Source: a virus
Taxonomy: Duplodnaviria > Caudoviricetes
DNA: 56,836 bases
Reading direction: 5' to 3' (one strand)
IMG/VR virus record: IMGVR_UViG_3300037155_000015
Location: 1-56,836 of that record
The number at the start of each line of letters is the position of its first letter. Within the stretch, counting starts at the first letter, position 1. The position numbers and the translations under genes were made by a program. Under the pieces are notes generated by a model. That model saw nothing but the letters and a program-made list of their open reading frames with translations, had not been told where the DNA came from and ran no database searches. Positions 3,926-55,246 of the stretch are shown here, one piece after another.

Positions 3926-3946
3926 GCGGCCATGGCGGGATTGCCG

Positions 3947-7290: not shown

Positions 7291-7377
7291 GCTATCCCCT
7301 TTTCAACTTTATTTCCTCTGCCCATCTTTTGTCAGCAATCAATAGAGTCAGCCGGATGATTTTGTAGTAGCGCTGCA

Positions 7378-10757: not shown

Positions 10758-10835
10758 ATGTACGGCTCCTTATCCCTTCATCTCTTTCAACAATTTAGCA
10801 ATTCGAATGGCGATATTGAACCGGTCGAGCGCCCA

Positions 10836-14100: not shown

Positions 14101-17100
14101 CTTTATAATAACCCTCGCCAAGTTTTTTGAGTTCTTCACTTTTGCCTTTGTAATTCCTCTTGCTGTTATGTATTTCGTTGATTCTGTTTAAATTATCATT
14201 GGCGGTTTGCTGTAAATCTTCAATCTTTGCTTTGATTTCGGCAGGCATCGTTGTGCTTTGCTGATGTTCAATGAGATTGCTTCCTTTTGCGAATCCCCCT
14301 TCATCCTGCAAAAAATGTTGCGTTTCGTGAAGTAGTGTTTTTAACGCTGATTCGTTATCCGCTGCCTTTACCGTAATCCCCCTTTGCCATCCTGACGGGC
14401 TGAAACTACCTTTCGATTTCTCAAAATAAGGGTCAATGGTAATGAACACCGGGAGCTTGTCTAATTCTGGATGTTGCTTAAACAATACAGGATGGTCAAG
14501 CACGTCGCTGAGTTTGTAAGGATACCCGCTTTCAAGACCATCTTTCAGCCTTGCCCCACTGTCGTCAATCTCCACCTTTGCCTTGCGGTCGGTAAGGTCG
14601 GTGAACTGGCCGCGAGTGGGGAGGTCAGGCGGATTCTCGTTGTCAATTACAACTTTTGCAGGGAATGATTCTGCACCCATGATTTTGAGAGCATCGTACC
14701 TGTGACCACCTTCAAGAATATATGGACCGTCCTTGTCTATGACCACGATAAGGGGGTTAATCTCACCAGAATCTTTTATTTCTTCAGCGAGGGCTTTTGT
14801 CCTTGGAGTAATTTCAGGAGGTGCCTCGAAGTCGGATAGCTTAACTTCGCGTATGCCGGGAAGTATTTTGTAATCCGTCAACGATGCTTCAATAGAACCC
14901 ATATTCGGCACGCGGTCCCTCACCACCAGACCGTCAACATCTCCTTTTGCGACAGGGTAATCCCACTTTCCATGACCGGCATTAATGTCTGGGCCGAATA
15001 AGCCGCGCTCATCCTTCGCCATCTTCGCCACATGGTCAAAGACGCTCTGCATCCGCAGTTTGAAGCGGTTCCACAAGTCGCCGAGATATTCTTTCATCCG
15101 GGCGGAGAAGGATTTAAAGTCGGTCGCACCTTCGCGGAAAGCGGCCTTGCCAAGTTCTACCAGGTGGGGGAAAGCGCGAGCCCCGGCGTTAGATAATTCC
15201 CCTAGCTCCTTGAGGGCGAGGGGGAGAATGGAGGTGATGTCGTGGAGTATGTTCGGGTCGGTAGCGTCGAACGTGCCTTTGTTCCCGGCATCTTCGGCCA
15301 GAGTCGCCTTGTCCACACGGGAGATAAGTTTTCCTTCCATGGCCGACTTTGCTTGGCTGCTCTTGAAAAAAACGTAGACTGTAGATTTTTTAGAACCCTT
15401 ATCGTTGTTGTAATAATCAACGGAATTCTTGATGATAATCCCATCGTGCCCTTTCTCTTTCGCTTCACCTAAATGCTTTTCCGTTTCCTTCCAGTTCGCC
15501 CCGCCGGCATCAACAACCATAGGATTTTCGATGGACAGATATAAAGAGATTGTATGCGGTTCGGCGTTCTGATAATCGAAGGCCCGTTTATCGTCGGCAT
15601 AACTGTCCGCCGTTGCGTAAGAGTCGGAGGCAAAGAAGCTATCCCCACGGGTGAGACTATTGAATCCCTCTTTGAGCAATCCCCGAACGTCAGGACTGCC
15701 ATGATAAACCACCAGCGGTTTGCCGTCCTTGTCAACCACCTTGGAGTCGCCAAACCATTGTTTGAATGCAGGGGTGTCGGTCTTAACGGTGGGTTTTGCG
15801 GGAGAGTCCGGCACAGTTTCAGGGTAATCAGCCGTGTAAACCGGCTTGCCCTTCTTACCGCCTCCAAGGGCTTCGATGGCTGTCCCGGTCAGTTCGGATA
15901 CTTCCTGCTTGCTGTACGGCCCTCGGTAGCCGGTAGCGTCGGATTTGACGGTAAAGACGGGACGGTCTTCGGCGTTGATGTACCACTGTGCCTTTTCTTT
16001 TGCGGCAGACTGAACCGTCAAGCTTTCCTTGGGGGGGGATACTTCAGCAGAAGGTTCACCTTGACTGGCTTCGGCGGTAGTTATCCCTTCTCCCTGTTGC
16101 TGGTTCTTGCGTTCGGTGAGGACTGCGAGTGCGGTCTTCTCTCCGGCTGACAATTTTTGCTTGGCAGAAAGAGTATCGAATCTGCGGAGTTCTGCTTTGC
16201 TTAACGGCCGGGTCAATTCAAGCCACGCCCTGCCTGCGTCTGTCGGGGTATAGCCGGACTTATCTTTGAAGTTAGGTCTTGATAGTTCAACGTGTCCGGC
16301 TGCCAACAAATCCTTCATTGACTGCTTTTCTGATTCCGACATTATTCCATTGAACGGTTTGCCCGACTTTACTATTTTTTGTAGCAGTTCGCGGCGGGAT
16401 TCCGCTTGCTTGGTGCTGCTTTTGCTTCCAGCTCCCGTCGCAACTCTTCCGGCTTGTCCTTCAGGTGCGACAGGTTCAGCTTGGCTAACCGGCTCTCGGT
16501 TGACATACTCTCCCCCCTTGTTCAATCGTTGCAGTGCCAACTTAGAATCGGCGGCCTGCTCTACTTCTTTAACGCTGTTGAAATTCTTAAAATCTGCGGC
16601 GCCATGTTCTATCCCAACTCCCGGCGGCATTCCAGTGGTCTTATGAGGGATAGCGTCAATCCCGGCCTTTTTGGCATATAGTGTAACGGCCTTTTGGGCT
16701 TTGTCAAGTGTGGCAGATAAATCTTTTGCGGGAACGTCGGGAGCAATGACAGCGAACTCGTCACCCTGGCGGCGAAATACTTGAGCGGTTGGATGCTCTG
16801 CTTTCACCTTGGCTTTAATAATGTCGGCTATGGCTCTGATATGTGGGTCGGCTAAAGACTCCCCGCCTGCCCACTTGTTAAGTCCGCCCATGTTGGCAAC
16901 GTCGATGCTTCCATAGGCGAAGTCGCGGCCATTCGCTTGATGCTCCTGCCATGCCCGGTCAAGGGTAGGGTAGTGGTGCTCTCTGGCGATAAGTCCCGTC
17001 ACAGCGTCAGGAAGGCGCTCACGTTGGCGGCGTTCGTTGACAAGTTCGGAGTGTAGCGGTTGATCGGGGGTAACGCCCCCTGCTTCCAATTTGGCGGCTA

Positions 17101-37726: not shown

Positions 37727-39154
37727 TCACGCCGCCATGGCCCCGCGTTGCCGTGAGATCCCCTTGTGAATGTCCCTGGCCACCGGTCGAGTCCTGGCAA
37801 TCTCCATGCCGGTGTTCTCCAGATAGCGGGTCGTGTCCATCAAGTGATCATTCACTTTGACGATCTTCCCGTTCTCGTCCCGCCGATACAGCCTGTACTC
37901 CTCAAACCAGGGCGTGAGCGTCTTGAACACCTTCATCCTGCCGGTCGAGAGCCGCGTCCAGACCCGGTAGATCCCAGACTCCACGGCGTTGTTCGCCTCG
38001 GTCAGGTCAAGCCCCTCGTCACGGTACTGCTGCAGGAGTTGTGCCCCGTCATCCTGTGTCCGCCCGCGGGAGGCCGGGTCGATCGCCCCAGGTATCCATG
38101 AGCCCCGAGCTTTAACAGCCGAGGCATGGATAGGAGGCTGTGCTTTTCCCTCGTAATGGCAGGAATAGAGGTAGAGGCAATCGCTCTCCCGGTCCATCGC
38201 TCCCCAGAGTCCGGCTGTCCGGTTCCAGCCGACATCCAGGGCGTAGGCTCGCGGCCAGTGATCCGGGATAACGAACGAGGCAACGGTGATTTCTTCTTCC
38301 GGGATCGGGTAGATCGCCCCGCTGCCGAGTTGTGGGATACCTTTCGATCGGGCGTCACGTTGATGGGGAGGGAGAGCCGCCCAGAGTTCATCCTTAGCTT
38401 CCCTGGTCAAATGTGGTGCATCGTCCCATGTCGCGGAGATGATGAACTTCTTGGCGTTCTCAGTTGGTACTTTTCCACCAGGTAGGAAAGTGAGCACAAC
38501 TTCTGACAGACCTTGCAGGGGGGTGAAGGTGAGCATTACACAGCCGTCCGTCGTCATCGTACGCAGGAGACATTCCGTGTAGATGCTCAATGGTGGCTCT
38601 TCATCCAGCCAAACGATATCTTTCGACGTTCCCTGGAATGATTCCCGGCCCTGATCATAGCTCTTGAACGTAAGTGCCGAAGTCCCGCCGGAGATGTGCC
38701 GGACATAGACCGTCTCAATCGCATCCGCCACGCTCCGCTTCTTGGCGTGAGATATGATCTTGTCACCAGGGATCATACCGGTCCCGAACTCGGAGGGAAT
38801 GCCCGGAGGGCCGCATAGTTTCGCCTGCAGAATGTCCCGGACCGTCTGATTGGTATCACCAGCCGCCCAGATATCTGTCGGACGGTGGAAGCGCTTACCG
38901 ATCCACCATGCGGGATAAATGCCGGTGAGGTGACAGGTTACTGCGTATGCCCCGGCCTCACTTTTGCCGACACGATTCGCCGCCATAAAAGCAATTTCTC
39001 GCCAGTCGGCGCTTGCTGCAAAAAACGCCATGTGCTTGACGTACAGCTCACGGCGCAACGGTCCTTCTTCGGGGAAATAGTCGGCAAACTTCCTGCGACT
39101 CTGGCGCCAGTCCCACTCCTGCAATAACATAAGGTAGCGCTGGTTGTCGGTCAT
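37727..39154 (-). CDS. terL: Terminase large subunit (P22 gp2-like)
   Basis: Walker A AANRVGKS, FKSYDQGRESFQG, Walker B WLDEEPP, nuclease motifs LDVGW and DHLMDTTRY. Confidence 0.95.
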   Translation of the reverse strand: MTDNQRYLMLLQEWDWRQSRRKFADYFPEEGPLRRELYVKHMAFFAASADWREIAFMAANRVGKSEAGAYAVTCHLTGIYPAWWIGKRFHRPTDIWAAGDTNQTVRDILQAKLCGPPGIPSEFGTGMIPGDKIISHAKKRSVADAIETVYVRHISGGTSALTFKSYDQGRESFQGTSKDIVWLDEEPPLSIYTECLLRTMTTDGCVMLTFTPLQGLSEVVLTFLPGGKVPTENAKKFIISATWDDAPHLTREAKDELWAALPPHQRDARSKGIPQLGSGAIYPIPEEEITVASFVIPDHWPRAYALDVGWNRTAGLWGAMDRESDCLYLYSCHYEGKAQPPIHASAVKARGSWIPGAIDPASRGRTQDDGAQLLQQYRDEGLDLTEANNAVESGIYRVWTRLSTGRMKVFKTLTPWFEEYRLYRRDENGKIVKVNDHLMDTTRYLENTGMEIARTRPVARDIHKGISRQRGAMAA

Positions 39155-39750
39155 TTCAGGAGCCTCTTGGCTTCCAGTGTGGCAATCTGCGCCAGAACCT
39201 GCTCGTCAGTGAGTTGTGTGATCTGGAACAGCGGGTTCTCGGGATCTCCACCGATATGCTGGGTATTTTTCCATCCATAGTTGTTAATCAGGTTGAAAAT
39301 AGGTCCGGTAGCGTTATTTCCGAACAGGGATTTCTCCGCATAATTCTCGCAGCGAACCTTCGCTTTTTTTATCGTGTCATAAAACTCTTCGCGTCCCTCG
39401 TAATTCAGGAGCCCTTGCCGGGTGGTATCAAGTGCTATCGCAAGCCCTGTGATGGTGAATGGCTCGACCTGCTTCTTTATTAACCTCTCCCCAGTCTTTT
39501 TCCCTTCTTCGTCTTTAAGGGCAACGGTGAACTCTTCAAAACATGATTCAAAATAAGCATCAATCGCGGTCTGTAACTCTTCGACTGTTTCGAACTTTCT
39601 TGGCCGGCCAGACTTCTTGCGTGCCTGTTCCTTTTCAAATTCTGCCATCGACGGGAGGGCGCAAATTACCTTCTTATCAGACAAAAGCCCCACAGGTTCT
39701 GCACCCAGGGGCTTCGTGGTAGTCTTCGCTGGAGTCTTTTTGGCGGTCAT
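39151..39750 (-). CDS. terS: Terminase small subunit (P22 gp3-like)
   Basis: GRPRKFETVEELQTAIDAYF...PFTITGLAIAL...GPIFNLINNYGW. Confidence 0.88.
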   Translation of the reverse strand: MTAKKTPAKTTTKPLGAEPVGLLSDKKVICALPSMAEFEKEQARKKSGRPRKFETVEELQTAIDAYFESCFEEFTVALKDEEGKKTGERLIKKQVEPFTITGLAIALDTTRQGLLNYEGREEFYDTIKKAKVRCENYAEKSLFGNNATGPIFNLINNYGWKNTQHIGGDPENPLFQITQLTDEQVLAQIATLEAKRLLK

Positions 39751-39824
39751 GCGCGATCCTTTATTTCGATGTATAGCGCCTTCAGCAACACGGCATAATT
39801 CCGAATATCGGTTGGCGAGTCCAT

Positions 39825-40166
39825 TTATAGCTCCTGCCTGAATTCGATCTCGTCCGGCTCGCCGATCTTTACCTTTTTTATCTGCCGGTCGAGTTTGAAA
39901 CCGTGCCTTTCGAGTTCCTGGAAGATCTCAATCGCGGTGCGAGAGTTGAGCCATCCGGTCGCCTTCCGTAACATCCGCACCTTCGCCTTGACCTGCTTGG
40001 TATTGATGAAGAACTTTCCGCAACCGGCGCACCGCATGACGCTCAACCGAACGACATAACCGGGGAGAGCAGATCCATCTTGCAGATCCTTAACGGCGAT
40101 GAGTTCAGCCGTGGCCAGGGGGTGCTTGCAGAACCATTTCAGCCAGAGGCGCTTCAACCGTTTCAT
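39825..40166 (-). CDS. Hypothetical protein
   Basis: Coupled to the KTSC gene. Confidence 0.55.
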   Translation of the reverse strand: MKRLKRLWLKWFCKHPLATAELIAVKDLQDGSALPGYVVRLSVMRCAGCGKFFINTKQVKAKVRMLRKATGWLNSRTAIEIFQELERHGFKLDRQIKKVKIGEPDEIEFRQEL

Positions 40167-40369
40167 TTCTTCGCCTCCAGCTTATTCCCCTTCACGTTCA
40201 TCTTCTGGAGGTGCTTACCGACGCTCGGCGCTTCCTTGAGCTTCCGGAAACCCTCCGGGGTAACCCCGTCATAGGAATAGGTGCGTCCACCCTTGAACCG
40301 AACGTGCATAACTTCGCCCTCGTGTCCGACGGCTTCAATATGCGAAGATTTTACCGGGTGCATCTGCAT
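40163..40369 (-). CDS. KTSC-domain protein
   Basis: VKSSHIEAVGH...VRFKGGRTYSYDGV...LKEAPSVGK. Confidence 0.9.
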   Translation of the reverse strand: MQMHPVKSSHIEAVGHEGEVMHVRFKGGRTYSYDGVTPEGFRKLKEAPSVGKHLQKMNVKGNKLEAKK

Positions 40370-40396
40370 ATCAGACTCCTTTTGATAACGCGCTAG

Positions 40397-40424
40397 ATTT
40401 TATGCTTTACTGCTGGAATGTCAA
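40397..40424 (-). promoter_or_regulatory. Sigma70-like promoter upstream of the KTSC/packaging genes
   Basis: TTGACA-16 nt-TAAAAT on the minus strand. Confidence 0.6.
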
Positions 40425-40442
40425 GAATTTTCTAATACGGGC

Positions 40443-40503
40443 AATGAACCAGTCGCGGCACACGGTCTGCGCTACCGCTTGCCGGTGCGCTTTGTCGTTG
40501 GAA
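40443..40503 (+). repeat. attC-1
   Basis: AAC CAGTC GCG-G-CAC-A-CGG...CCG GTG CGC TTTGTC GTTGGAA; 52/53 identical to attC-8. Confidence 0.8.
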
Positions 40504-40507
40504 AGCT

Positions 40508-40951
40508 CTAGCGGCCTTGTAGCCGTCGCAGAGCACTGACTAAAATCTGCTGTTCTGCCTGAATATTTTTTTCAGCATGATGGAACTCTTGCTGACTGCT
40601 CCAGATGTTACCCTTAGGCCCAATGTGTTGCCGTGCTTTACCGGCATCGTTGACCCAAATCAGGCCCCACTTTTCGGGCAAATCTTGTGCCGTGATGACC
40701 CCGGCAGGGCAGAGATAAAAACGATAGGTCCCCATCCCCATCCAAGGGTTACGCCGGAAAAGTTTCTTTGCATCCGCTAGAAAATCAGAGCGGCTTGTTT
40801 TACACTCAATCAATGTAGATGTCCCGTCCCGGAATCCGATAGCGTCCGGCGTCTCCATGCCTAGAGTAACCAATTCAGCCAGCACAGCCCCGCACTTGCG
40901 AGAGCCTATCAGCCAACGTTCTGCAATTTTAACGAGTTCAGTATGTGTCAT
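40508..40951 (-). CDS. Cassette 1: PD-(D/E)XK (MmcB-like) nuclease-fold protein
   Basis: ETPDAIGF...LIECKTSRSDFLAD motif. Confidence 0.75.
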   Translation of the reverse strand: MTHTELVKIAERWLIGSRKCGAVLAELVTLGMETPDAIGFRDGTSTLIECKTSRSDFLADAKKLFRRNPWMGMGTYRFYLCPAGVITAQDLPEKWGLIWVNDAGKARQHIGPKGNIWSSQQEFHHAEKNIQAEQQILVSALRRLQGR

Positions 40952-40969
40952 AAAATCCTCAATTCGCTT

Positions 40970-41031
40970 TTCCAACCAGGCACCGGACCGGAGGCGATGA
41001 ACCCGCCCCGGTCAGCGCCTAGCCGTTAGAT
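40970..41031 (+). repeat. attC-2
   Basis: TTCCAAC...GACCGG-A-GGCG...CGCC CCGGTC...GTTAGAT. Confidence 0.75.
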
Positions 41032-41751
41032 AGTCTCTGCCAGTGCTTCCTTGGCAACATCGCGCATTTCACCGTATACCAATGAAGGGGATGAACTGCG
41101 GGGGAAATTGGCGAATGCAACAATGTCTGTCAGGGCTTTCCGCAGCTTATTAATTTCTATCTGCCGTGATATTGCTTTGCCGTACCATCGGTTGCGCTCT
41201 TCCTTTAGTTCAGCAGCCCATGAAAGATCACCGCCAGACTCTTCCCTGCAAATCCGCGCTATCTTTTCGGCATTATACTTTGCGCCCTTACCCCATTGGT
41301 TAGGCGGAGCTTGTGTCATTTCGTCGGCAATAGTGGCGGCAAACTCAAGCCCCTGCAAATAGCCCTCTCTGCCAGCTTCGATAGCATTTAACTGCTTGCA
41401 CTCTAGACATTCCCTTTCTCGACTACCCCGTAACTCAGCAACCAGCTTTTCGAGGTGGTCAATTCGCCCCTGCAACAAGAGACGGACTTGCTCTGTCGTC
41501 ACTATTTCTGGTGGTTCAGGTTCAGCCCACGTCTTAACCTCTACTTGTGCGGCAATACAACCAGCACACCGGGAAAACTGGACAGAAAACCCGCTATGGT
41601 CAGGTTTCAAATATCCATCAGTGCGGAATAGCCGACACAACACGCTGCCATGCTCTTGTACCGCTTTAAGGTAGTTGCAATAAGGGTGACACTGGTTCAA
41701 GTCTTTGTCATTGCCCTTGATCTTTATTTCAAGCGTTATTTCTGCTGGCAC
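41026..41751 (-). CDS. Cassette 2: hypothetical protein (several smaller ORFs lie upstream in the same cassette)
   Basis: Its TAA stop coincides with the GTTA of attC-2. Confidence 0.65.
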   Translation of the reverse strand: MPAEITLEIKIKGNDKDLNQCHPYCNYLKAVQEHGSVLCRLFRTDGYLKPDHSGFSVQFSRCAGCIAAQVEVKTWAEPEPPEIVTTEQVRLLLQGRIDHLEKLVAELRGSRERECLECKQLNAIEAGREGYLQGLEFAATIADEMTQAPPNQWGKGAKYNAEKIARICREESGGDLSWAAELKEERNRWYGKAISRQIEINKLRKALTDIVAFANFPRSSSPSLVYGEMRDVAKEALAETI

Positions 41752-42298
41752 TTGTCACCTCCCGCACCATCCGACGAATCAACCGAATAGTTGCCTTGTC
41801 AAAATTTATGCTGCTTTTGTCGTAGTCTGATAATGTTACCGGCATCGTCATCACTCCTTATAGTCTATCAACTCAAGCACTGCTCTTCTCTACTCATTTT
41901 TCACCCCTCTCCGTTTTGTCCCACTCCCGAACGTAATTCCATTCCCCGCAGTCATCACAAGTGGCGTTGAAGTGGTAACCAAGTATCCGCACCGGTTCAA
42001 TTTGAGTAAGTTCCCAAAGCCCACAATTTCGGCACCTTTTCATTTCTTCCCCCATCCATGTTTTAATCCGTGCAGACACCGCTTACAGGTAACTTCTCCC
42101 TTGTCCTTTTCGTCCATCAGAACCGTGGGGGCAGTATCCAGTTTGATGCCGCAAAGTATCTTTTCTCCATTGAACCAGTGCCTTTTCATAATTCGTCCTC
42201 ATCCTCTCTCGGGCATTCTTCCCACCAGTAGTGGAATCTCTCGCATTTCAGGCAATAGCGAATATTCTTAATTTCTGCCACGATTTCTCCTTTCGACT

Positions 42299-42356
42299 AT
42301 CTAACAAAACGTAGCAGCAGGCGATGAAGCCCGCTGCTGTACTTAAGCCGTTATAG
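42299..42356 (+). repeat. attC-3
   Basis: ATCTAAC AAAAC GTA-G-CAGCA...TGCTG TAC TTAAGCC GTTATAG. Confidence 0.85.
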
Positions 42357-42848
42357 ACCTTTTACGCGTAACACCAGTTGACATGGCCCTGTCCAGCCTT
42401 TGGAAAAATGGAAGGTTCCCGTGCTGAATCCGAAAGGGAAGCCGACCATGCTGCCGCGGCCGTACACCGTTATGCCCTTGATGCCGCCCCAATCGTTAAT
42501 CATCTTCATTATGATCTGCCGCTGGAAAACCTTGTTCGTCGGCAGTATGTACGCTATGTCGTTTGCAATCTTGAAGCTGTGCCGCAGCCATTCCTCAAAA
42601 ATCGAATATGGCGGGTTTCCGATGATCCAGTCCACCGGGTCGCGGTAATCAAAGAAGTCTTTACCCTTTCGCAGTTCGCACCAGTCCGAGCCAGCCGGAA
42701 GATGCTTGTGGAATGCTCCATCGCCGAAACAAGGGTCAAGGCACTTGCCAGAAGGCTGCAGCCAGTCAATGATCTCACTCGCCACGGTATCCGGCGTGTA
42801 AACGATATCTGACGGCCTGGGCGGTATGTAAAAAAGTGGTTGTTGCAT
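42351..42848 (-). CDS. Cassette 3: small N6-adenine DNA methyltransferase-like protein
   Basis: VYTP, LDPCFGDGAF (motif I) and IIGNPPY (motif IV). Confidence 0.8.
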   Translation of the reverse strand: MQQPLFYIPPRPSDIVYTPDTVASEIIDWLQPSGKCLDPCFGDGAFHKHLPAGSDWCELRKGKDFFDYRDPVDWIIGNPPYSIFEEWLRHSFKIANDIAYILPTNKVFQRQIIMKMINDWGGIKGITVYGRGSMVGFPFGFSTGTFHFSKGWTGPCQLVLRVKGL

Positions 42849-42893
42849 CTCGATCCTTTAAAGGCTATGGCCTTCGGCCAACGCGTAAAATGT

Positions 42894-42951
42894 CTATAAC
42901 CAAACGCTCGAAGCCGACCGCTTCGCGGCGGTTCAGCTCAAGCCGTTATAA
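42894..42951 (+). repeat. attC-4
   Basis: CTATAAC CAAAC GCT-C-GAAGCCG-A-CCGC TTC GCGG CGGTTC AGC TCAAGCC GTTATAA; closely resembles aadA-type attC. Confidence 0.9.
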
Positions 42952-43677
42952 ATCTTCTTGCGCTAAAACCTGCCATGCTGTTGCAGCCACCAACGGAACT
43001 TGACCGTTTCCAGTGGCTGCAAGTCGCTCCAATTTTCCGGCCAGCCCATCACCCATTCCCAAAATTCGGGCCTTCTGTTCTGCCGCTTCTTTCCAAGTCC
43101 CAGATTTGCCCACCAATCGCGCAGATTGTATTCTTTCCCGTTTTTGCTTCTGCAAATTCCTCCCCCATCCCCATCGGACTTGATCGGTGTCGGCAAGAAT
43201 CCATATTCGTTCCCGCTTATGCTGGGCGCCAACGTGGTCAGCTCCCAGCACTCCCCATCTTGCATTAAACCCCATCTCGGCCAGGTCTCCGAGAACCCGT
43301 CCGAGTCCCCGAGAAGTGAGCATTGGTGAGTTTTCCACAAGGACGTACTTCGGTCGTACCTCAGAAATGATCCGGGCCATCTCTGCCCACAATCCAGACC
43401 GTTCACCGTCAAGCCCTGCACCTTTTCCGGCGCATGAAATATCTTGGCAGGGGAAGCCACCGCACACGACTTCTGCAATCCCTCGCCATGGCTTGCCGTC
43501 AAAGGTGCAGACATCATCCCAGATAGGGAACCACGGCAGGATTCCGTCTCGTTGCCGCTGTAAGAGGACTTCTCGGCAGTAAGGTTCAATTTCGACTGCA
43601 CAAACTGGCTTATGTCCGAGAAGCAATCCGCCGAGGATGCCTCCCCCTGCTCCTGCAAATAAATGTAGCTCATTCAC
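42946..43677 (-). CDS. Cassette 4: C5-cytosine DNA methyltransferase, alpha frame
   Basis: LFAGAGG, GGFPCQD, VENS, HKRER and GNGQV motifs; GTG start at 43677. Confidence 0.9.
   Translation of the reverse strand: MNELHLFAGAGGGILGGLLLGHKPVCAVEIEPYCREVLLQRQRDGILPWFPIWDDVCTFDGKPWRGIAEVVCGGFPCQDISCAGKGAGLDGERSGLWAEMARIISEVRPKYVLVENSPMLTSRGLGRVLGDLAEMGFNARWGVLGADHVGAQHKRERIWILADTDQVRWGWGRNLQKQKRERIQSARLVGKSGTWKEAAEQKARILGMGDGLAGKLERLAATGNGQVPLVAATAWQVLAQEDL
42963..43673 (-). CDS. Cassette 4: fully overlapping alternative-frame polypeptide (beta, motif IX)
   Basis: 236-aa open frame with LPTP and PEFWEWVMGWPENWS. Confidence 0.65.
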   Translation of the reverse strand: MSYIYLQEQGEASSADCFSDISQFVQSKLNLTAEKSSYSGNETESCRGSLSGMMSAPLTASHGEGLQKSCAVASPAKIFHAPEKVQGLTVNGLDCGQRWPGSFLRYDRSTSLWKTHQCSLLGDSDGFSETWPRWGLMQDGECWELTTLAPSISGNEYGFLPTPIKSDGDGGGICRSKNGKEYNLRDWWANLGLGKKRQNRRPEFWEWVMGWPENWSDLQPLETVKFRWWLQQHGRF

Positions 43678-43715
43678 GTCAACCCCTATGCCCTGTCGGG
43701 CAAGCGCAAGAAAAT

Positions 43716-43774
43716 TTCTAACCAAACATTCGACCTGACCGATGAAACTGGCAGGTCAATTCAAGCCGTTAGAT
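43716..43774 (+). repeat. attC-5
   Basis: TTCTAAC CAAAC ATT-C-GACCTG-A-CC...GG CAGGTC AAT TCAAGCC GTTAGAT. Confidence 0.9.
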
Positions 43775-44341
43775 TGCTAAGTCACATTTCACTTCGTTGC
43801 CCCAAACGTCCCACCCCGGCGCGGCTCTCCGTGCGAAAAGTTCCACCCTCGGGAGATCCCCCGCCAGTGCAAGAATCCTTTCCCGTGTCTCGTCCGGTTT
43901 CCGTGAATGTGCCGCAATCGGTGAATAAATAATCTGGTGCACTCCGGCGCTGACTCGCTTCGGTTGCCCCTTCACTGCCAACAGACAAAATTCAGTATTT
44001 GCCCTTGTCCACCGTCCCATCCCCCAGAAACTGTCGAAACTGTCCACAGGGAAAAAACTGGCTTGGTCAACATTCGTGCGCTTGTTGGTTTTCACCCATA
44101 CAAAGGCGCACGTCTTAAAGTCAAAGCCCCACGCGGCCAGCACTGCGCCAGCTTCAAACAGTTTAGGCCATGCTCCCCACATGAACAGCAGACAATCATC
44201 GGCGGCGATGTCGGCAATCGGAAGGGCGCAAATGTCCGCCAGTTTCATCGTGCTGTAATGTCGCTCTGCCCCCCCACGGTTCAGGGCTTTATCGTCGTAA
44301 CTCCATGGGGGATCAGCGTAAATAATGTTGTACTTTTTCAT
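43769..44341 (-). CDS. Cassette 5: MT-A70-family adenine methyltransferase
   Basis: IIYADPPW, HYSTM, HSRKP and ELFARR motifs; start MKKYNII. Confidence 0.9.
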   Translation of the reverse strand: MKKYNIIYADPPWSYDDKALNRGGAERHYSTMKLADICALPIADIAADDCLLFMWGAWPKLFEAGAVLAAWGFDFKTCAFVWVKTNKRTNVDQASFFPVDSFDSFWGMGRWTRANTEFCLLAVKGQPKRVSAGVHQIIYSPIAAHSRKPDETRERILALAGDLPRVELFARRAAPGWDVWGNEVKCDLAI

Positions 44342-44361
44342 CGATGCATCTCCTAAACGCA

Positions 44362-44420
44362 ATCTAACCAACGCTGTGGACCAGCCCGAAAACCCGGCTG
44401 GTCACGCTCAAGCGTTATCA
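44362..44420 (+). repeat. attC-6
   Basis: ATCTAAC...GT-G-GACCAGCC...GGCTGGTC AC GC TCAAGC GTTATCA. Confidence 0.85.
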
Positions 44421-44606
44421 ATATCTAGTCTCGTACTTGCTTACGAGCCGACCAGAGCAGTAGGGGCAATAAATAAAGCCATCCTGTCCCGGCCCTCCAT
44501 CGTCAATAAAAAGGAATTTCTCTCCGCATTCGGTATCCCATGACGATGTATCGGGATCATATTTCCACATGCAAAGCCGTTGCTTTTTCTCTTCGCTCAT
44601 TTGCAA
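44418..44606 (-). CDS. Cassette 6: small Zn-ribbon-like protein
   Basis: C.W...WDTECG...FIYCPYCSG. Confidence 0.65.
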   Translation of the reverse strand: MQMSEEKKQRLCMWKYDPDTSSWDTECGEKFLFIDDGGPGQDGFIYCPYCSGRLVSKYETRY

Positions 44607-44791
44607 TCCTCCTGATAGTTGCAGAAATCACACGTTGATGATCCTGGCGCATATTCTCCAAAGCACTCCGGTTCATCATCCTCGACGTAATCTCCGCCAA
44701 CTAAATCGTCAGTAATCATCCCAGTACCACCGCACAGTTGACATGATGGGTCAAGGTATCCGTTTGGCGCAACACACTCAGGACAAAGCAT
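44597..44791 (-). CDS. Cassette 6: Cys-rich protein, paralog of 46221-46406
   Basis: CPEC...CQLCGG...PECFGEYAPG...CDFCNYQEDC. Confidence 0.65.
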   Translation of the reverse strand: MLCPECVAPNGYLDPSCQLCGGTGMITDDLVGGDYVEDDEPECFGEYAPGSSTCDFCNYQEDCK

Positions 44792-44993
44792 CTTTTATCC
44801 TCTTTTCCGTGTAAAACTTGCTTGCCGTTTCCCACGGTATCATTGCTCCTTGATTGTCCCCTTCAAACTTCATTGACCACTGCTTATGGCAAGTGTTGCA
44901 CTCCACCTGTCCCGCTTGGTTTGATATCTTCCGCACAAGAAAAAGGTCGTGCTTACCAATTCGACACGCTAGTTGTTTGAATCCCCAATACAT
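44778..44993 (-). CDS. Cassette 6: hypothetical protein
   Basis: GGAGG RBS before MYWGFK, inside the cassette boundary. Confidence 0.55.
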   Translation of the reverse strand: MYWGFKQLACRIGKHDLFLVRKISNQAGQVECNTCHKQWSMKFEGDNQGAMIPWETASKFYTEKRIKDALS

Positions 44994-45006
44994 GCACCCT
45001 CCGAAT

Positions 45007-45057
45007 TGATAACCATCGGCTGTTGCGGTGAACCCGCAAAGCCTCAAACCGTTATCT
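45007..45057 (+). repeat. attC-7 (short)
   Basis: TGATAAC CATC GGCT-G-TTGCGG TGAAC CCGCAA AGCC TCAAACC GTTATCT. Confidence 0.8.
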
Positions 45058-45058
45058 G

Positions 45059-45277
45059 CTAATTGAACCCTTCGATAAATCTGCGCGCTTCCGACACTGA
45101 CGACAACATTCCTCCCATCATCATTTGCATTCCGAGATTTATTGCTATATGGCCTTTTGTCTCTTCATGCTTCCCTAAGTCGCTGAACATTGAAGTCAAT
45201 GCCTGCATTGGGTCGCCTGCATCGCAGTATTCCAACGCTCTTTTTTTACACCATGCCAAGTGTTCTGTTCGTGTCAT
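45059..45277 (-). CDS. Cassette 7: hypothetical protein
   Basis: MTRTEHLAWCKKRALEY; coupled ORF chain. Confidence 0.65.
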   Translation of the reverse strand: MTRTEHLAWCKKRALEYCDAGDPMQALTSMFSDLGKHEETKGHIAINLGMQMMMGGMLSSVSEARRFIEGFN

Positions 45278-45474
45278 TGAATTTCCCCACTGCCCTCTGC
45301 GAATACTTCAAAACCAAAGTGGGCACCGAGTACCGTTTGCCTTGCAGCATCGGCGCATTCATCCTCAGAAATAAATATCGCCAGTTCTTCACCGTCCATC
45401 ATCGGAGTAATAGTCCCGCGTTGCGTGGTCAGCATTGCAAAATAGTGTGTGTCCAGTTCTTGTTCGACCATCAT
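45274..45474 (-). CDS. Cassette 7: hypothetical protein
   Basis: AGGAG RBS; coupled to the next gene. Confidence 0.55.
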   Translation of the reverse strand: MMVEQELDTHYFAMLTTQRGTITPMMDGEELAIFISEDECADAARQTVLGAHFGFEVFAEGSGEIQ

Positions 45475-45483
45475 TCTACTCCT

Positions 45484-45732
45484 TTATCGTGCTCTCAGTT
45501 TTTCCAACTCTTCAAGGCAAACTCTGAACGCTTCGGCCCGCCCTGATTGCCAATCATCGTCATCATCGTTGTGGTCATATTGGTTGATTGCGTCTATCGC
45601 TTCCTGAATAACAGCTTGCCGTGTAGTATGAACTGTTTCCTTAAATGGAAATGGTTGCATCATACCACCACATCGGCACAATGGTTCCGGTGTAAATTGC
45701 TTTATCCTTCCGGTACAAAAATCTTCACTCAT
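45484..45732 (-). CDS. Cassette 7: hypothetical protein
   Basis: GGAGG RBS. Confidence 0.55.
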   Translation of the reverse strand: MSEDFCTGRIKQFTPEPLCRCGGMMQPFPFKETVHTTRQAVIQEAIDAINQYDHNDDDDDWQSGRAEAFRVCLEELEKLRAR

Positions 45733-45925
45733 TCGGCACCTCCGTTATCTTGCCTGTTTTGGCTATTTTGCAAGCAGGCCCATGCTTAAACCTGGCATCT
45801 CCAATGTATTGCCACTTCTGAACAACAATATTCCCATCATGGTCTGTGTGGTCATATTCAAAGCCAAGCCGCCTAAAAGTGGCGTATACCTCTTCTTGTG
45901 GCTCTTTCATATTTGAGGTTTCCAT
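45725..45925 (-). CDS. Cassette 7: hypothetical protein
   Basis: Part of an overlapping ORF chain. Confidence 0.5.
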   Translation of the reverse strand: METSNMKEPQEEVYATFRRLGFEYDHTDHDGNIVVQKWQYIGDARFKHGPACKIAKTGKITEVPNE

Positions 45926-46221
45926 CGGTCAACCTCATGGCAAAGCGCCATTTCTGTCGTCACACCATCAGCAACGTCACATTTTAACCATTGCTCAAAA
46001 CGGACGGACATTCTTTCGTCGCGCAGCGTGTGGGCATATTCTTGACATCCTGCAATAAAGGCTTCGCCCATCAACCACCGCTCCCTTTGAGTCAATTCGC
46101 CCGCAAGTACGCCGTAATTGCTATCAGCAAAGGCATCGGTCATGTCTTTAAGTTGCTTCTGCAATCTTTCAATATCCAGTAACAAATATTTCCGGCTGCT
46201 CGTTCTTCTGTCTAATGGCAT
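45907..46221 (-). CDS. Cassette 7: hypothetical protein
   Basis: Probable start MPLDRR with a TAATG overlap. Confidence 0.55.
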   Translation of the reverse strand: MPLDRRTSSRKYLLLDIERLQKQLKDMTDAFADSNYGVLAGELTQRERWLMGEAFIAGCQEYAHTLRDERMSVRFEQWLKCDVADGVTTEMALCHEVDRWKPQI

Positions 46222-46406
46222 TATTGACATTCCTCCTGATATTCGCAAAAGTCGCAATGTGTTCCGGGCTGATAATCTCCAAAGCATTCAGGACCGTCCT
46301 GTATTTCCTCGCTACAATCCGAGAAAAAGTAATTACCATGACATAACGGGCAGTCTGTGGCGGTCGTATCAGGATAACAATTCGGGCATTCCATCATTTC
46401 CTCCAC
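46221..46406 (-). CDS. Cassette 7: Cys-rich protein, paralog of 44597-44791
   Basis: CPNC...CPLCHG...PECFGDYQPG..CDFCEYQEEC. Confidence 0.65.
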   Translation of the reverse strand: MEEMMECPNCYPDTTATDCPLCHGNYFFSDCSEEIQDGPECFGDYQPGTHCDFCEYQEECQ

Positions 46407-46410
46407 CGCA

Positions 46411-46471
46411 CTATAACCAGTCGCGGCACACGGTCTGCGCTACCGCTTGCCGGTGCGCTTAGTCGTTATAC
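46411..46471 (+). repeat. attC-8
   Basis: Near-identical copy of the attC-1 core, bounded by CTATAAC and GTTATAC. Confidence 0.85.
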
Positions 46472-46753
46472 GAATAAAGTTTTACCCTCAGTGATTGCCG
46501 CTGAATCTTGCCGGTATTTTCCACGACAATCTATGATTTGCCGGTGAAGTGCTAAAGTTACAAGATCATCATCTTCAACAGAGAACACCCAGCAGAAGTT
46601 TTGCCACGGGGCATTTGCAGGTGGAGCGCCAGCGAAATGAACATCTTTGCAATAAGCAGCGACAATGCTACCGATTGCGGTCACAAACTCGCACCATTCA
46701 GATTGCGTCAGTTTGTCGTCTGAGTTGCCAATTTGAAGAGTAATTGTTTTCAT
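46466..46753 (-). CDS. Cassette 8: hypothetical protein
   Basis: MKTITLQIGNSDDKLTQSEW with a GAGG RBS; stop lies in attC-8. Confidence 0.7.
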   Translation of the reverse strand: MKTITLQIGNSDDKLTQSEWCEFVTAIGSIVAAYCKDVHFAGAPPANAPWQNFCWVFSVEDDDLVTLALHRQIIDCRGKYRQDSAAITEGKTLFV

Positions 46754-46798
46754 GTAACCTCTCTTTTGCCAGTAATTTATTGAACTCACGGAAACCTC

Positions 46799-46859
46799 GT
46801 ATAACCAGCGTTTCGACCCGACCGATAAGGCCGGACGGGTCAAACGCCAGCCGTTATGC
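46799..46859 (+). repeat. attC-9
   Basis: GTATAAC CA GCGTTT-C-GACCCG...CGGGTC AAACGC CAGCC GTTATGC. Confidence 0.9.
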
Positions 46860-46863
46860 GTCC

Positions 46864-47181
46864 CTACTCTGCCAGCGCATCGCCGATTGAGATAAGACAC
46901 CCCTCGCACAGTTTCGGTCCGCCGTGGTTCTCGAAACAGCCGGAGACCTTTGCGCGGAGTCGCTTGTTTTCTTCTGTCGCTGATTGAAAACTGTTTCCCC
47001 TGTCGCGTATCTGAATTTTTAGGCATCTGATCTCGGATTGTAGGTCTGATATCTCAGCCCTAAGCGCATCAGCAAGTTCTTGCCGTAGTCCATCGGCGGT
47101 TGCTTGGCATTTGTCGTGATATCTTGCACACGGGAAAGAGAATTTGCAGTGGCTTTCATTTTGTAACAATGGCATCGGCAT
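46864..47181 (-). CDS. Cassette 9: hypothetical coiled-coil/Cys protein
   Basis: AGGAG RBS before MPMPLLQ. Confidence 0.6.
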   Translation of the reverse strand: MPMPLLQNESHCKFSFPCARYHDKCQATADGLRQELADALRAEISDLQSEIRCLKIQIRDRGNSFQSATEENKRLRAKVSGCFENHGGPKLCEGCLISIGDALAE

Positions 47182-47202
47182 CGTTCTAATCTCCTGAATT
47201 TC

Positions 47203-47296
47203 GCATAACCACCGGCTAGACAACGACCGGGGTTAGTGCGCGTTGATATGAGTTTGTATGAGTTCGGCCCGGCGTGTCAGCCGGGACCCGTTATGC
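47203..47296 (+). repeat. attC-10 (long variable terminal structure)
   Basis: GCATAAC CA CCGGCT-A-GACA...CCGGG...CCCGG...TGTC AGCCGG GACCC GTTATGC. Confidence 0.85.
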
Positions 47297-47343
47297 CCAT
47301 CCTGCGGCGTGTCATTGCCCCTTGTAGGTGTAGCCGGGGCGGT

Positions 47344-47751
47344 TTATCCGTAAATGTCTTTGCGCTTCCGCTCTTCTTCGTCTGGCGGATTAAGGGAATT
47401 TCCCCCCGCGTAATCCGTCCCAAACTTATCATCGAGCATGGCGTAGAGTGCTTTTAACTGCTTCGCTGACTCTTCCAGGGTACAGAATGATTCCGGTATC
47501 TGCTTGGCGTTGTAGGGCTGGACCCCTTCGGGCCTGCGGTACGTCTGCGCCAAGGCAATTAAAATCTTGATAGTTGGGAAGGCATCACCCTCTACTGACT
47601 TGTCCAGAGCGAACTCGACCGCCTCAATGCTCCAGGCTTCCAGCTTCAGGTAGTAGATCGACAGTGATTGCTTCGGGACTTGCCGAAAGAACGCCGCCCC
47701 TACCACCGCCATCGCCACCGCAAACCGCTGCTGATCCTCTGTCCCTGTCAT
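47344..47751 (-). CDS. Replication accessory (helicase loader/inhibitor-like) protein
   Basis: Follows the initiator; YYLKLEAW...FPTI pattern. Confidence 0.5.
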   Translation of the reverse strand: MTGTEDQQRFAVAMAVVGAAFFRQVPKQSLSIYYLKLEAWSIEAVEFALDKSVEGDAFPTIKILIALAQTYRRPEGVQPYNAKQIPESFCTLEESAKQLKALYAMLDDKFGTDYAGGNSLNPPDEEERKRKDIYG

Positions 47752-48568
47752 AAATCACCATTTCCTTGACGAAATCACGCGCTGCCTCTTTGTTCTTTTC
47801 GATCTTTAGGTCTTCAAAGGTCTGGGCCTTGACCGGTAACAGCCCAATTTCATCCTCCCATCGTCGAGAACTTAACCATCCTTGCGCCATTTTGGGTGTC
47901 CTGCCTTGGCTTCTCAGTTCTAAGCGACCAGATGCCTCGCTTTTGGCCGCTTCGATGATCCTGGCTAAGATTTGGCCGCTAAGAGTCGGGATATCTAACC
48001 ATGAATCTGCGGCTTCCGCTTTACCGGTTTTATAGTCGAATGTTTTCCAGAAAAGTTCAAACGACTCCAATCTTTTGCCAGTCAACTTCCGACCCTTCTT
48101 TGAGAGATAAAAATCCCCTTGCGCTTCATCGCCAGATGAAGGAATGATTTTAGATTCTTTCTCTATCTCCTTCTCTATCTCTATCTCTATCTTTGCGCCG
48201 GATTTTTTTCCGGGTTTGTCCGGCGTGACTCCTGATTTTTTTGAATACTCGTCTCGGAATTTCAATAGGTTAGGGATTTTTATTTTTAGCTTTCCGATAA
48301 AATTAATGTTGTCATACTCCATTAGAATCAGAGTTTTTTCCGAAAAAACGGAGAAAAACATGGTAGTTTTGCGCGGAGTGCAGTGTAATTTCCGCGCCCA
48401 GGCTTTCAATGGATACGACAATTCGCACTTGTCGGAGGTGTCCATTTCGGCCCCAACGAGCTCAAGAAGTAGCCACCAAAACCCGTAACCTTCCAACCCG
48501 AATTGATGCATGATCTCTTCAAGTTTTTCATCGTTGTGTGATCTGGTTTGATGCTTATACCACCGCAT
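47624..48568 (-). CDS. Replication initiator-like protein (DUF4373/Lin1244-like N-terminus)
   Basis: MRWYKHQT...DEKL...GLEGYGFWWLLLE; C-domain FELFWKTF...QGWLSSRRWEDE. Confidence 0.75.
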   Translation of the reverse strand: MRWYKHQTRSHNDEKLEEIMHQFGLEGYGFWWLLLELVGAEMDTSDKCELSYPLKAWARKLHCTPRKTTMFFSVFSEKTLILMEYDNINFIGKLKIKIPNLLKFRDEYSKKSGVTPDKPGKKSGAKIEIEIEKEIEKESKIIPSSGDEAQGDFYLSKKGRKLTGKRLESFELFWKTFDYKTGKAEAADSWLDIPTLSGQILARIIEAAKSEASGRLELRSQGRTPKMAQGWLSSRRWEDEIGLLPVKAQTFEDLKIEKNKEAARDFVKEMVIYDRDRGSAAVCGGDGGGRGGVLSASPEAITVDLLPEAGSLEH

Positions 48569-48599
48569 GCGCCCACCTTTGCCATCGGCTGATTAAATT

Positions 48600-49325
48600 C
48601 TAAATTTCAGGTACTGACAGATATTCTTTGCCGTCCAGAGGACCGCCCTTGAACATGAAGGGAATCCCCGCCGCTGCCGCCTGATCGCGGAGAGATAACG
48701 CCCACTGAGGATCAAAAAGGCGCTTACCTGGGCCATTTTCAGGACCGGTGATGATCCATTTCGGGAGTACCGGCCAGATATCGAGGCAGAGGTTGAGAGG
48801 AGCAAGCATCGGTTCTGCCAGCACTCCGACATTCCAGCCCATTGTGGCGAGTTTGGCAGTCGTCGGATACCGCTTGTTCACCATCTCTTGATTTTCCATC
48901 GTGACCAGATAAATCACCTTCGGGAAATACATGTTGTGGCTCAACGGAGTATTCGGATTGTTCCAATACCGCAATATTTCACGCGGGCGCTTGGTGCAGA
49001 TGATGTGATAGTCGGATGTCTGCTTAATAATTTCGAAGAGCTTGTCGCGAAATACGTCCGTCACGCCTTCATGGAAAATGTCATTCCAGTACGTCCACAC
49101 TCGCGGCTTCCGGTGTAAACTCTTCGGTAAAATATCAGCCATGCGCTCGGGGTGTTCGGCAATGGTGCCGTCAAATGGTTTCCCTCCGTTGAAGCGCATC
49201 TGCATTGCCTCACTCCAGCAATTCAGACAGCCAGGAGATACCTTTGTGCAACCAGATATTAAAGTTTTGGAATGCGTCCAAAATTTCCCTTTCGGTAAAA
49301 CGTCCTGAAGTATTTCGTTGATCAT
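48600..49325 (-). CDS. DUF5131 (gp37/gp68-like) protein
   Basis: GCTKVSPGCLNCW, TKRP, EPML, WIITGPENG and GIPFMFK motifs. Confidence 0.85.
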   Translation of the reverse strand: MINEILQDVLPKGKFWTHSKTLISGCTKVSPGCLNCWSEAMQMRFNGGKPFDGTIAEHPERMADILPKSLHRKPRVWTYWNDIFHEGVTDVFRDKLFEIIKQTSDYHIICTKRPREILRYWNNPNTPLSHNMYFPKVIYLVTMENQEMVNKRYPTTAKLATMGWNVGVLAEPMLAPLNLCLDIWPVLPKWIITGPENGPGKRLFDPQWALSLRDQAAAAGIPFMFKGGPLDGKEYLSVPEI

Positions 49326-49503
49326 TTTGCGCCCTTTCCTTTACTGTGTTTCGGCAACGGCACCCCGGCATCAAGGCACCTGAACCGTCTATCGCAATTG
49401 TCGCAAATCGGATCACACGCACACACCCATTCACCGTTCACAGTTATATGCTTCACTCTCCCTCCCAAAAATCACCGCCGGCCGCTACACCGGCGGTGTA
49501 TGT

Positions 49504-54829: not shown

Positions 54830-55246
54830 TTATGCTACATCCATAAAATCGAACAGCGTCGGCATATTTGCCTCTTCTTCCGCCAGTTTCAGGTACCCGA
54901 CTCCATCCCGAAAATAATCAGCGTTCAGCTCGCAACCTTTACCATGCCGCCCCATCCTGACCGCCTTCTGCGGTACGCTCATGATGCCGCCGAAGGGGTC
55001 ATAAACCAGCTCACCTTTGTTGCTATATCGGGTGATGATCCTTTCAATTTCCAACTGCTGAATGGACTTGCCGAGACCGAAACTCTCAAAGATCGCTCGA
55101 CAACCGCCTTTGATCGCCCACTGTACAGCGTCGCGCTGATGGGGTTTCAGAATCGGATGGATCTCTGATGCTGCTATATCGAAGCCGGTTTCTTTGGCGA
55201 CTTCAATTTTACTCTTCAAGAATTCGAGATACTTCTCCATACTCAC
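54830..55246 (-). pseudogene. Internally deleted SNF2-helicase/DNA-methylase fusion
   Basis: N-half LKPHQRD...GLGKS (helicase Q/Walker A) joined directly to C-half YSNKGELVYDPFGG...GCELN (MTase motif I). Confidence 0.75.

Follow-up and report, generated by a model that had tools for sequence, protein, structure and literature searches.

Integrons are regarded as bacterial gene-capture platforms. A cluster of attC sites lacking an integron integrase (CALIN) was reportedly defined by Cury and co-workers, in 2016, as two or more attC sites lying close together with no integron integrase nearby. Here, we describe a large array of this kind in a phage genome from peat, at positions 40,443 to 47,296 of the virus record IMGVR_UViG_3300037155_000015 (Duplodnaviria; Caudoviricetes), all 56,836 nucleotides of which constitute the window that was analysed. 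Since ten attC-type sites occur within 6.9 kb and there is no integrase in the whole genome, the array is a CALIN. It is not a complete integron, which would comprise intI with adjacent attI and Pc, as there were no candidates for TIGR02249 or PF00589.

The closest described systems are the CALINs of other phages. According to Qi, Rajabal, Ghaly, Tetu and Gillings (2023, Front Microbiol, PMC9892861), CALINs are present, as small clusters, in 17 of 10,705 phage genomes, their cargo includes DNA methyltransferases, and IntI1 recombined five of the six phage attC sites assayed. Tetrasphaera phage TJE1 is described there as bearing a CALIN of three attC sites and four open reading frames (ORFs), two of the sites having been assayed with IntI1. 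As phage CALINs with methyltransferase cargo and IntI1-active sites are in print, the original prediction overstated the novelty of the locus. Our array shares with the CALINs of that report the absence of intI (virulent phages being included among the carriers), methyltransferase cargo, the type of site and the proposed reliance on bacterial IntI. It differs from TJE1 in size, having ten sites and nine cassettes against three sites and four ORFs; from TJE1 and PH101, both presented there as typical, in that its genes are antisense to the attC top strand; and from the phage CALINs described there in that differences in cassette content between natural samples were seen directly. No report of arrays this size, of turnover in natural samples, or of uniformly antisense phage cassettes was found in our literature search, with the supplementary list of the 17 CALINs lying outside that search. 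Thus, the size of the array, its visible natural turnover, and the antisense genes in all nine intervals look new.

Three other systems offer a comparison. The array lies in what we take to be the lambdoid slot for small accessory genes, between replication and packaging genes. In lambdoid phages, the nin-like region is found between the replication and the late or packaging genes, and holds small accessory genes, RusA and methyltransferases; genome position and content are the same here, while attC sites, each with a defined crossover, mark the limits of the modules in place of loose boundary sequences. Class 1 integron arrays (MH445380) have in common with our array the site architecture, crossover between the G and the TT of the GTT triplet (G/TT), pairing of R'' and R' across the cassette, and mostly promoterless cassettes. 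Unlike them, the phage array has no intI, attI or Pc, its attC sites precede the genes rather than follow them, and its cargo consists of phage methyltransferases and small early genes instead of resistance genes. Sedentary chromosomal integrons, as described by Richard et al. (2024, Sci Adv, PMC13108822), likewise form long arrays with recurring near-identical attC sites, and the ease of site folding and cassette excision depends on where the bottom strand is placed. Their bottom strands are placed on the leading-strand template and their genes are in sense, whereas in the phage the bottom strand is the gene-sense strand, and would be the lagging-strand template for a fork coming from the adjacent replication gene.

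We consider it likely that the phage locus is an attC array which is shuffled site-specifically and served by a host integrase. The sites themselves are ten hairpins bounded by AAC and GTT triplets without exception, distributed between 40447 and 47292 on the plus strand; their lengths are 43-86 nt, rising to 51-94 nt once the 4-nt box flanks are counted, and all ten were found where they had been predicted. S1 (40447-40499) is the last along transcription, adjoins the packaging backbone, and is 98% identical over 53 nt to its near twin, S8 (46415-46467). Between them lie S2 (40974-41027), S3 (42303-42352), S4 (42898-42947), S5 (43720-43770), S6 (44366-44416) and the shortest site, S7 (45011-45053; 43 nt), and beyond them S9 (46803-46855) and S10 (47207-47292), an 86-nt site with a long terminal loop and the first along transcription. 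The spacers, predicted at about 5 nt and 6-7 nt, measured 4-5 nt on the 5' side and 6-8 nt on the 3' side in nine array sites aligned by model fitting. Beyond the extra base predicted in the left arm, there is an excess of unpaired bases in the 5' arm over the 3' arm, present in all 35 sites of the same model-fitted alignment, which comprises these nine; 26 of the 35 come from the array and five other viral records. In this alignment, 96.1% of cells pair, versus 75.0% in shuffles, compensatory changes occur in 11 of 15 pairs with none of 500 shuffles reaching the observed value, and slid controls pair at 17-37%, although an alignment fitted to a model favours the structure. S10, which stands outside the alignment and was missed by both covariance models introduced below, was recognized by its AAC and GTT, 5-nt flank pairing with S9, three bulges (all assigned by eye to the 5' arm) and contig breaks at 47289/47290.

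Identity of the sites as attC was assessed with two covariance models, R1, made from three array sites, and R2, made from eight. S3 and S4 were training-set sites. Over the whole window, R1 recovered five more of the ten sites, four of them at E <= 0.002: S9 (33.9 bits, E 4.5e-7), S6 (31.3 bits, E 2.6e-6, before it entered any model), S2 (22.1 bits before inclusion; 59 bits with R2 as a training member) and S8 (21.9 bits, E 0.0017), with S7 following at 14.7 bits and E 0.25. All these matches were on the plus strand, and nothing convincing was found elsewhere in the 56.8 kb; R2 likewise matched within this genome only the array, always on the plus strand, S1 scoring 31.6 bits (E 3.3e-5). R2 was then applied to sequences that had played no part in its construction. 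In the class 1 integron of P1 isolate MH445380, it gave four matches (25.8-41.2 bits) and none other at E <= 10; these sites stand next to intI1 and on the gene strand, one immediately 3' of each of the four large genes annotated in the cassettes. In phage TJE1 it found exactly three sites, behind orf1, orf2 (methylase) and orf3, the next match having an E of 5.4. R2 sites were also present in 28 of 151 sampled Gammaproteobacteria genomes and 23 of 151 sampled Acidobacteriota genomes, the samples representing the class of one metagenome-assembled genome (MAG) and the phylum of another, with unpublished genomes included. All five multi-match gammaproteobacterial genomes that were checked encode IntI, four of them over the curated cut-off, and in two of these five a site adjoins intI and points away from it. 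As to the support from a covariance model asked for by the original prediction, the reciprocal comparison was positive: a model made from the array recovers attC sites of a class 1 integron, of TJE1, and of bacterial arrays next to intI. When S4 was compared with plasmids by blastn, only chance-level matches of 24-30 nt were obtained, so that the likeness to class 1 attC needed a covariance model to be seen.

The flanks of the sites carry a second type of signal. Beyond GTT and AAC, perfect pairing between the right flank of one site and the left flank of the next extends over 5, 8, 6, 1, 7, 6, 2, 6 and 5 nt in cassettes 1 to 9, while the two flanks of one and the same site pair mutually over 0-4 nt only. 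Of the first 17 flank positions, 16 pair in cassette 3 and 15 in cassette 4. When the assignment of left flanks to right flanks was permuted 100,000 times, the observed run sum of 46 (mean 16.2, standard deviation 4.9) was reached once, and the 58 matches within the first 10 nt (mean 34.5, standard deviation 4.9) were never reached. Every complementarity quoted in the prediction is present, and this control supports the true order. Pairing of neighbour-site flanks, by which the first bases of a cassette would complete the R' box of its own attC in the circle, is present in eight of the nine cassettes, cassette 7 being the weak one. Such pairing between neighbours is the footprint of exchange exactly at G/TT and of a circular cassette form. 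Measured from site to site, the cassettes are 528, 1325, 595, 823, 646, 637, 1414, 388 and 437 bp long, within the range of 388-1414 bp given earlier.

Signs of cassette turnover are visible in natural samples. Parts of the array were detected in fourteen public runs, 13 labelled as peat metagenomes and one as a freshwater metagenome, and Logan k-mer contigs from four of the public runs (X2, X3, X4 and X9) were compared with positions 38500-49500. X2 was the same as the source sequence throughout this interval. In X3 and X4, a joint from 41020 to 42346 skips 1325 bp, the exact length of cassette 2, with an 8-nt ambiguity that spans both G/TT points; in X9, a joint from 46463 to 46852 skips 388 bp, the exact length of cassette 8, with a 6-nt ambiguity. 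These joints are compatible with exact loss of cassettes 2 and 8 at G/TT. The listed contig pieces begin or end at 40496, 41028, 42346, 45049 and 47289/47290, each no more than 6 nt from GTT, and continuations that do not match the array start 1-2 nt past GTT (42354, 45054, 47294) or 1-2 nt before AAC (42302, 44365, 46414, 46801). The right backbone (47290-49500) showed only 0, 2 and 1 differences in X3, X4 and X9, respectively, despite their different cassette content; parts of the array left uncovered in these runs were not counted as evidence of absence. The expectation that gains and losses should break at G/TT is supported by breaks at site edges in other peat samples and by the two exact-length joints, and we regard the evidence for natural turnover as good but not final. 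The same runs account for the weakness of cassette 7, correctly noted in the prediction. In X3, X4 and X9, an S7-type site stands 21 nt past the first ORF of this cassette (45049-45287), and the flank so created pairs over 6 nt with the start of cassette 7. Hence, cassette 7 is probably a fusion that lost an internal site, which would explain why its ends pair over 2 nt only. A further boundary, the end of the L001 contig 1 nt past the GTT of its first site (L001 1-54, identical to S8 and not to S1), was set aside because it is explicable by the 53-nt repeat of S1 and S8 alone; L001 and L002, contigs of close relatives that each have a 98% identical large terminase (TerL), stop short of covering the array.

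Arrays of this type are not confined to a single phage. Matches to R2 were found in five of 80 loci around TerL relatives, and one of the five, the complete 57.9-kb relative G001, with a TerL 67% identical, bears at least six sites. They were also found in six of 50 loci around relatives of the replication initiator, including L091 with 13 sites, L094 with six and L112 with three; this search yielded no close relative, the best being 56-65% identical over a domain. A 24-nt stretch of S9 recurs exactly in six viral loci, one on the contig of L091 and five on further contigs which are otherwise unrelated to the source phage; four of these five bear two or more sites. Sites 85-93% identical are in this way present in otherwise unrelated phages: those in the five further contigs are 91-93% identical to S9, and L091, an unrelated viral record, holds one site 90% identical to S9 and another 87% identical to S4. 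Pairing of neighbour-site flanks was found again in related viral arrays. Megablast of the array itself against 50,697 phage records gave no match.

Two observations concern L091 alone. In this locus (record G361, 43,086 bp, with direct terminal repeats), two attC-type sites at 6929-10881 enclose a 3.8-kb interval with the replication initiator, a DnaB-like helicase and an HNH endonuclease, so core replication genes may also be cassette-bounded in this relative. In addition, the cassettes behind two different attC sites open with one 47-nt sequence at 100% identity (reverse-complement 7187-7233 and 11467-11513), and behind a third site the first bases of this sequence recur with 11 of 12 identical, which suggests duplication of a cassette within one array.

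The cargo of the nine cassettes, all of them with genes on the minus strand, agrees with the prediction that it is of phage type rather than related to resistance, as judged by family matches to methyltransferases and by the small early genes. Cassette 1 (40500-40973) holds one ORF (40508-40951; phrog_631, unknown function, E 6.1e-55), with a Shine-Dalgarno sequence and ATG directly after S2 on the minus strand. Cassette 2 (41028-42302; 1325 bp) comprises a 241-aa ORF (41026-41751) and four small ones. The next three cassettes encode methyltransferases or a protein resembling one: cassette 3 (42353-42897) has a DNA methyltransferase-like ORF (42351-42848; phrog_799, E 8.1e-30, with a weak N6_Mtase match), cassette 4 (42948-43719) a DNA methyltransferase ORF (42963-43673; phrog_1008, E 1.5e-17), and cassette 5 (43771-44365) an MT-A70 adenine methyltransferase (PF05063, E 4.4e-27; phrog_359, E 3.1e-84) with its stop at 43769 and a likely ATG at 44341. 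Cassette 6 (44417-45010) contains three small ORFs (62, 64 and about 71 aa), one of which was compared with families and had no match. Cassette 7 (45054-46414; 1414 bp), with its weak end pairing, contains six small ORFs, whereas single ORFs occupy cassette 8 (46468-46802; 388 bp; a 95-aa ORF at 46466-46753) and cassette 9 (46856-47206; ORF 46864-47180). The last of these has a homologue directly after an attC site in L091 (tblastx, 71% over 31 aa), and blastn similarity begins 8 nt past GTT in the array and 3 nt past it in L091. The genes fit closely between the sites: the TAA stop codon of cassettes 2, 3, 5 and 8 lies inside the R box, where the TTA of G/TTA supplies it as its reverse complement, and in six of the nine cassettes a ribosome-binding site and start codon occur about 15-30 nt past the site.

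A further feature of the array is the polarity of its genes. The sites are on the plus strand and the genes on the minus strand, so that, when polarity was called by comparing the strand of the longest ORF in each inter-site interval with the strand of the model, the ORF was opposite to the site strand in all nine intervals and on it in none. The minus-strand ORFs are supported by family matches (MT-A70, phrog_359, phrog_799, phrog_1008 and phrog_631). Antisense orientation was found in 25 of 28 intervals over seven related viral records: 10 of 12 in L091 (one interval on the site strand and one tie, the gene strand being backed by PHROG matches), five of five in L094, four of five in L081 (one on the site strand), three of three in L174, and the single interval in each of L173, L172 and L170. 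The bacterial controls behaved in the opposite way, with three of three intervals on the site strand in the class 1 integron (L134), three of three in the Acidobacteriota array L167, and four of five in L168, where one interval was opposite. Both polarities occur among phages, since a cruder call based on ORF coverage gives a sense orientation for the three sites of L112 and for single sites in four further loci; in TJE1 all three are in sense by annotation. As to the reading of the locus as integron-type cassettes, the signature of sites and cassettes therefore held, but the canonical co-oriented polarity did not, and this was overlooked in the original prediction.

Which strand would recombine can be deduced from the same data. 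Bottom strands of attC sites are reported to fold more stably, and that of attCaadA7 has extrahelical G16 and T23 (Nivina 2016, PMC5027507). In the array, the minus-strand fold is the more stable one in eight of ten sites, and S5, with C and A bulges 7 nt apart on the plus strand, has G and T bulges on the minus strand with just the spacing of G16 and T23. Together with the excess in the 5' arm and the strand of the model, these features indicate that the gene-sense strand carries the recombinogenic 'bottom' version of every site, as read from its sequence, opposite to the arrangement in bacterial cassettes. The foldable strand would then be the non-template strand of transcription and, for a fork leaving the adjacent replication gene leftward, presumably the lagging-strand template. 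It is in this orientation that cassette excision in an inverted Vibrio cholerae array is reported to rise from below detection (< 7e-5) to 3e-2 (PMC13108822), and the polarity seen here suggests an array built for easy folding; in L091, those sites that lie upstream of the replication genes do not fit the part of this idea that concerns replication. A more daring proposal, about which we remain rather doubtful, is that this phage group maintains its own pool of inverted-polarity cassettes, hyper-recombinogenic and shuffled upon induction of the host integrase. In the sense direction, each such cassette would begin with attC, continue with a ribosome-binding site and the ORF, and end in a TAA stop within the R box; it would be silent in a Pc-driven bacterial integron, and useful circulation would be restricted to phages.

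A separate problem is the source of the recombinase. Six-frame searches of the complete record gave no candidates for the integron integrase model (TIGR02249), tyrosine recombinases in general (PF00589) or serine recombinases (PF00239), while controls were positive in 14, 14 and 13 of 14 genomes, in agreement with the predicted lack of an integrase. A search of the same kind for Y1 HUH transposases (PF01797) also gave none, with the control positive in 10 of 14 genomes, and hairpins of the REP/RAYT or IS200/IS605 type were rejected on this basis. Four other array-bearing records are 98-100% complete; two have an ordinary phage integrase and two have none, and only one of these integrases scored with the IntI model, at 14.6 bits where the cut-off is 265. 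Thus, IntI is absent from five complete or near-complete array-bearing phages (the source record, G001, G361, G362 and G363). IntI over the cut-off was found in 61 of 201 sampled Acidobacteriota, unpublished genomes included. Relatives of TerL occur in three Acidobacteriota MAGs and one Gammaproteobacteria MAG, and these, along with the peat runs, the frequency of IntI in Acidobacteriota and the sites adjacent to bacterial intI, make a supply of host IntI for the phage array plausible. For the intI contig of G008, R2 gave no match at E <= 0.05; it gave one match at E 0.061 in L135, and none when the 20 kb on the divergent side was scanned for each of five intI genes of Acidobacteriota. The last result is explained by the side that was scanned, because the attC sites of this phylum lie downstream of intI and are co-oriented with it, unlike those of class 1 integrons, which are divergent. 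This arrangement, attC downstream of intI on the same strand, was observed in L167 (G079:C8), L166 (G139:C3), G073 and G030.

We infer that the host integron integrase acts in trans on the array. It would use the folded single-stranded bottom (minus) strands during phage DNA replication, and attC x attC exchanges would excise, insert and reorder cassettes. Since the only strong promoter match lies outside the array, the cassette genes would be expressed by read-through of the early leftward transcript, and their products, three DNA methyltransferases and many small proteins, could serve host takeover and anti-restriction.

Several points weigh against such a mechanism. The strict 7-nt GTTRRRY is present only in S2 and S5, the other sites reading GTTAT or GTTGG; the attC sites of TJE1 (GTTATGC, GTTAGAT and GTTATAC) resemble the array sites that depart from this consensus. 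R2 is a narrow model made in this analysis, and a scan of the whole 56.8-kb record with Rfam returned no family at threshold. Cassettes 2, 6 and 7 contain several ORFs apiece. The turnover evidence consists of k-mer contigs, and the short sides of the two exact joints, 20 and 21 nt, place them in a weak class; for the joints 41028 to 44365, 44418 to 45049, 45053 to 47289 and 40509 to 46412 the intervening sequence is not given, and these are compatible with exact loss of cassette 6 (630 plus 7 overlapping letters, 637) and of cassettes 7-9 (2235 plus 4, 2239). R2 had no match in five MAGs with TerL relatives, where 150 candidates were scored per genome, and the TerL neighbourhoods of these MAGs likewise gave none at E <= 0.05. 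Because the genes are antisense to the canonical polarity, the cassettes are neither expressible from a bacterial Pc nor simply borrowed from bacterial integrons. Finally, an exonuclease VIII-like gene and RusA could drive exchange at shared ends without IntI.

This last point leads to the best surviving alternative, which we nevertheless judge to be unlikely, namely that conservation of these intergenic hairpins reflects, for instance, RNA signals, transcription signals or module boundaries, and that the phage's own homologous or single-strand-annealing functions exchange modules at the hairpin ends they have in common, with no part played by IntI. Besides the exonuclease VIII-like nuclease (phrog_412) and RusA, encoded to the right of the array, one may cite the 6-8 nt common to the site ends and the 53 nt common to S1 and S8, within which exchange would give the same junctions, and the terminator-like score of S3 on the minus strand. 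Intrinsic terminators were, however, rejected as an explanation of the hairpins: terminator-like matches are not enriched (11, versus 9.6 expected from shuffles, standard deviation 3.0), and S3 alone coincides with one. Moreover, the flank pairing is specific to each cassette and would serve no homologous exchange, whereas a folded site in an excised circle needs it. The sites also match validated IntI substrates in sequence, structure and placement of bulges, and the 85-93% identical sites in otherwise unrelated phages argue in the same direction.

It is still less probable that an unrecognised phage-encoded enzyme, neither a tyrosine, a serine nor a Y1-HUH recombinase, acts on the single-stranded hairpins. 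The lack of IntI in all five complete or near-complete array-bearing phages, the many source ORFs with no family match, and the inverted polarity that sets the phage cassette pool apart from the bacterial one would be in line with such an enzyme. On the other hand, no recombinase family was detected in the source record, no gene was found to be common to all array-bearing phages beyond the replication initiator used as the search bait, and the sites are indistinguishable in type from bacterial attC adjacent to intI. The chromosomal integron fragments described in Vibrio phages (Qi 2023, PMC9892861) might suggest that the array is no longer active and descends from a single acquisition of bacterial integron DNA. 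Such a relic is very improbable in view of the phage-type cargo, which follows the direction of phage transcription and fits the sites closely, with stops in the R box and starts nearby, the polarity contrary to bacterial arrays, the variation of cassette content next to a near-identical backbone, and the presence of arrays in several distinct phages.

The genome that carries this probably host-served cassette array belongs to a complete P22-like, lambdoid-style phage. The record is complete by CheckV (100%), its ends share an exact repeat of 75 bp, nearly all genes run leftward on the minus strand, and a P22-type portal, a gp3-type small terminase, a large terminase and a major head protein are encoded. 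The array is flanked by genes for the replication initiator, DUF5131 and RusA on one side and for the small and large terminases on the other, consistent with its predicted placement between replication and packaging functions. The replication initiation protein (47624-48568, minus strand; phrog_270/9474/9327, PF14297) belongs to the right-hand backbone, and the large terminase and gp3-type small terminase (37727-39750, minus strand) to the left-hand one. The sole strong promoter match, sigma-70-like with 11 of 12 consensus positions (TTGACA, a 16-nt spacer, TAAAAT), lies just outside the left edge of the array at 40397-40424 on the minus strand, 23 nt beyond S1, and is directed at a KTSC-domain gene and the terminase genes.

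Other features of the genome are worth recording. An S24-peptidase repressor and an antirepressor (AntA/KilAC) are encoded at 1017-4032, yet the complete record has no integrase, unlike the relative G001, where a tyrosine integrase is present; the source phage looks like a member of a temperate lineage that either has given up integration or persists by different means. One ORF of 2,577 aa (11144-18877, minus strand) has weak PHROG matches and no known function, and the 972-aa ORF after it matches collagen repeats weakly and below threshold (22 bits, the cut-off being 27.2); the products of both are probably tail proteins or virion proteins that are injected. Outside the array there is also a short N6_N4 DNA methylase fragment of 138 aa (54830-55246, minus strand), covering only the C-terminal end of the profile.

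Our results indicate that a whole phage accessory region can be organised as cassettes, and that a set of uncultivated phages has attC types in common (85-93% identity) across genomes which are otherwise unrelated, with genes facing opposite to those in all the bacterial controls tested. The rule of polarity predicts which strand recombines and in which carriers the cassettes are of use. Should host integrases indeed use these arrays as substrates, phage mosaicism would have a defined mechanism, and anti-restriction methyltransferases would turn over rapidly.

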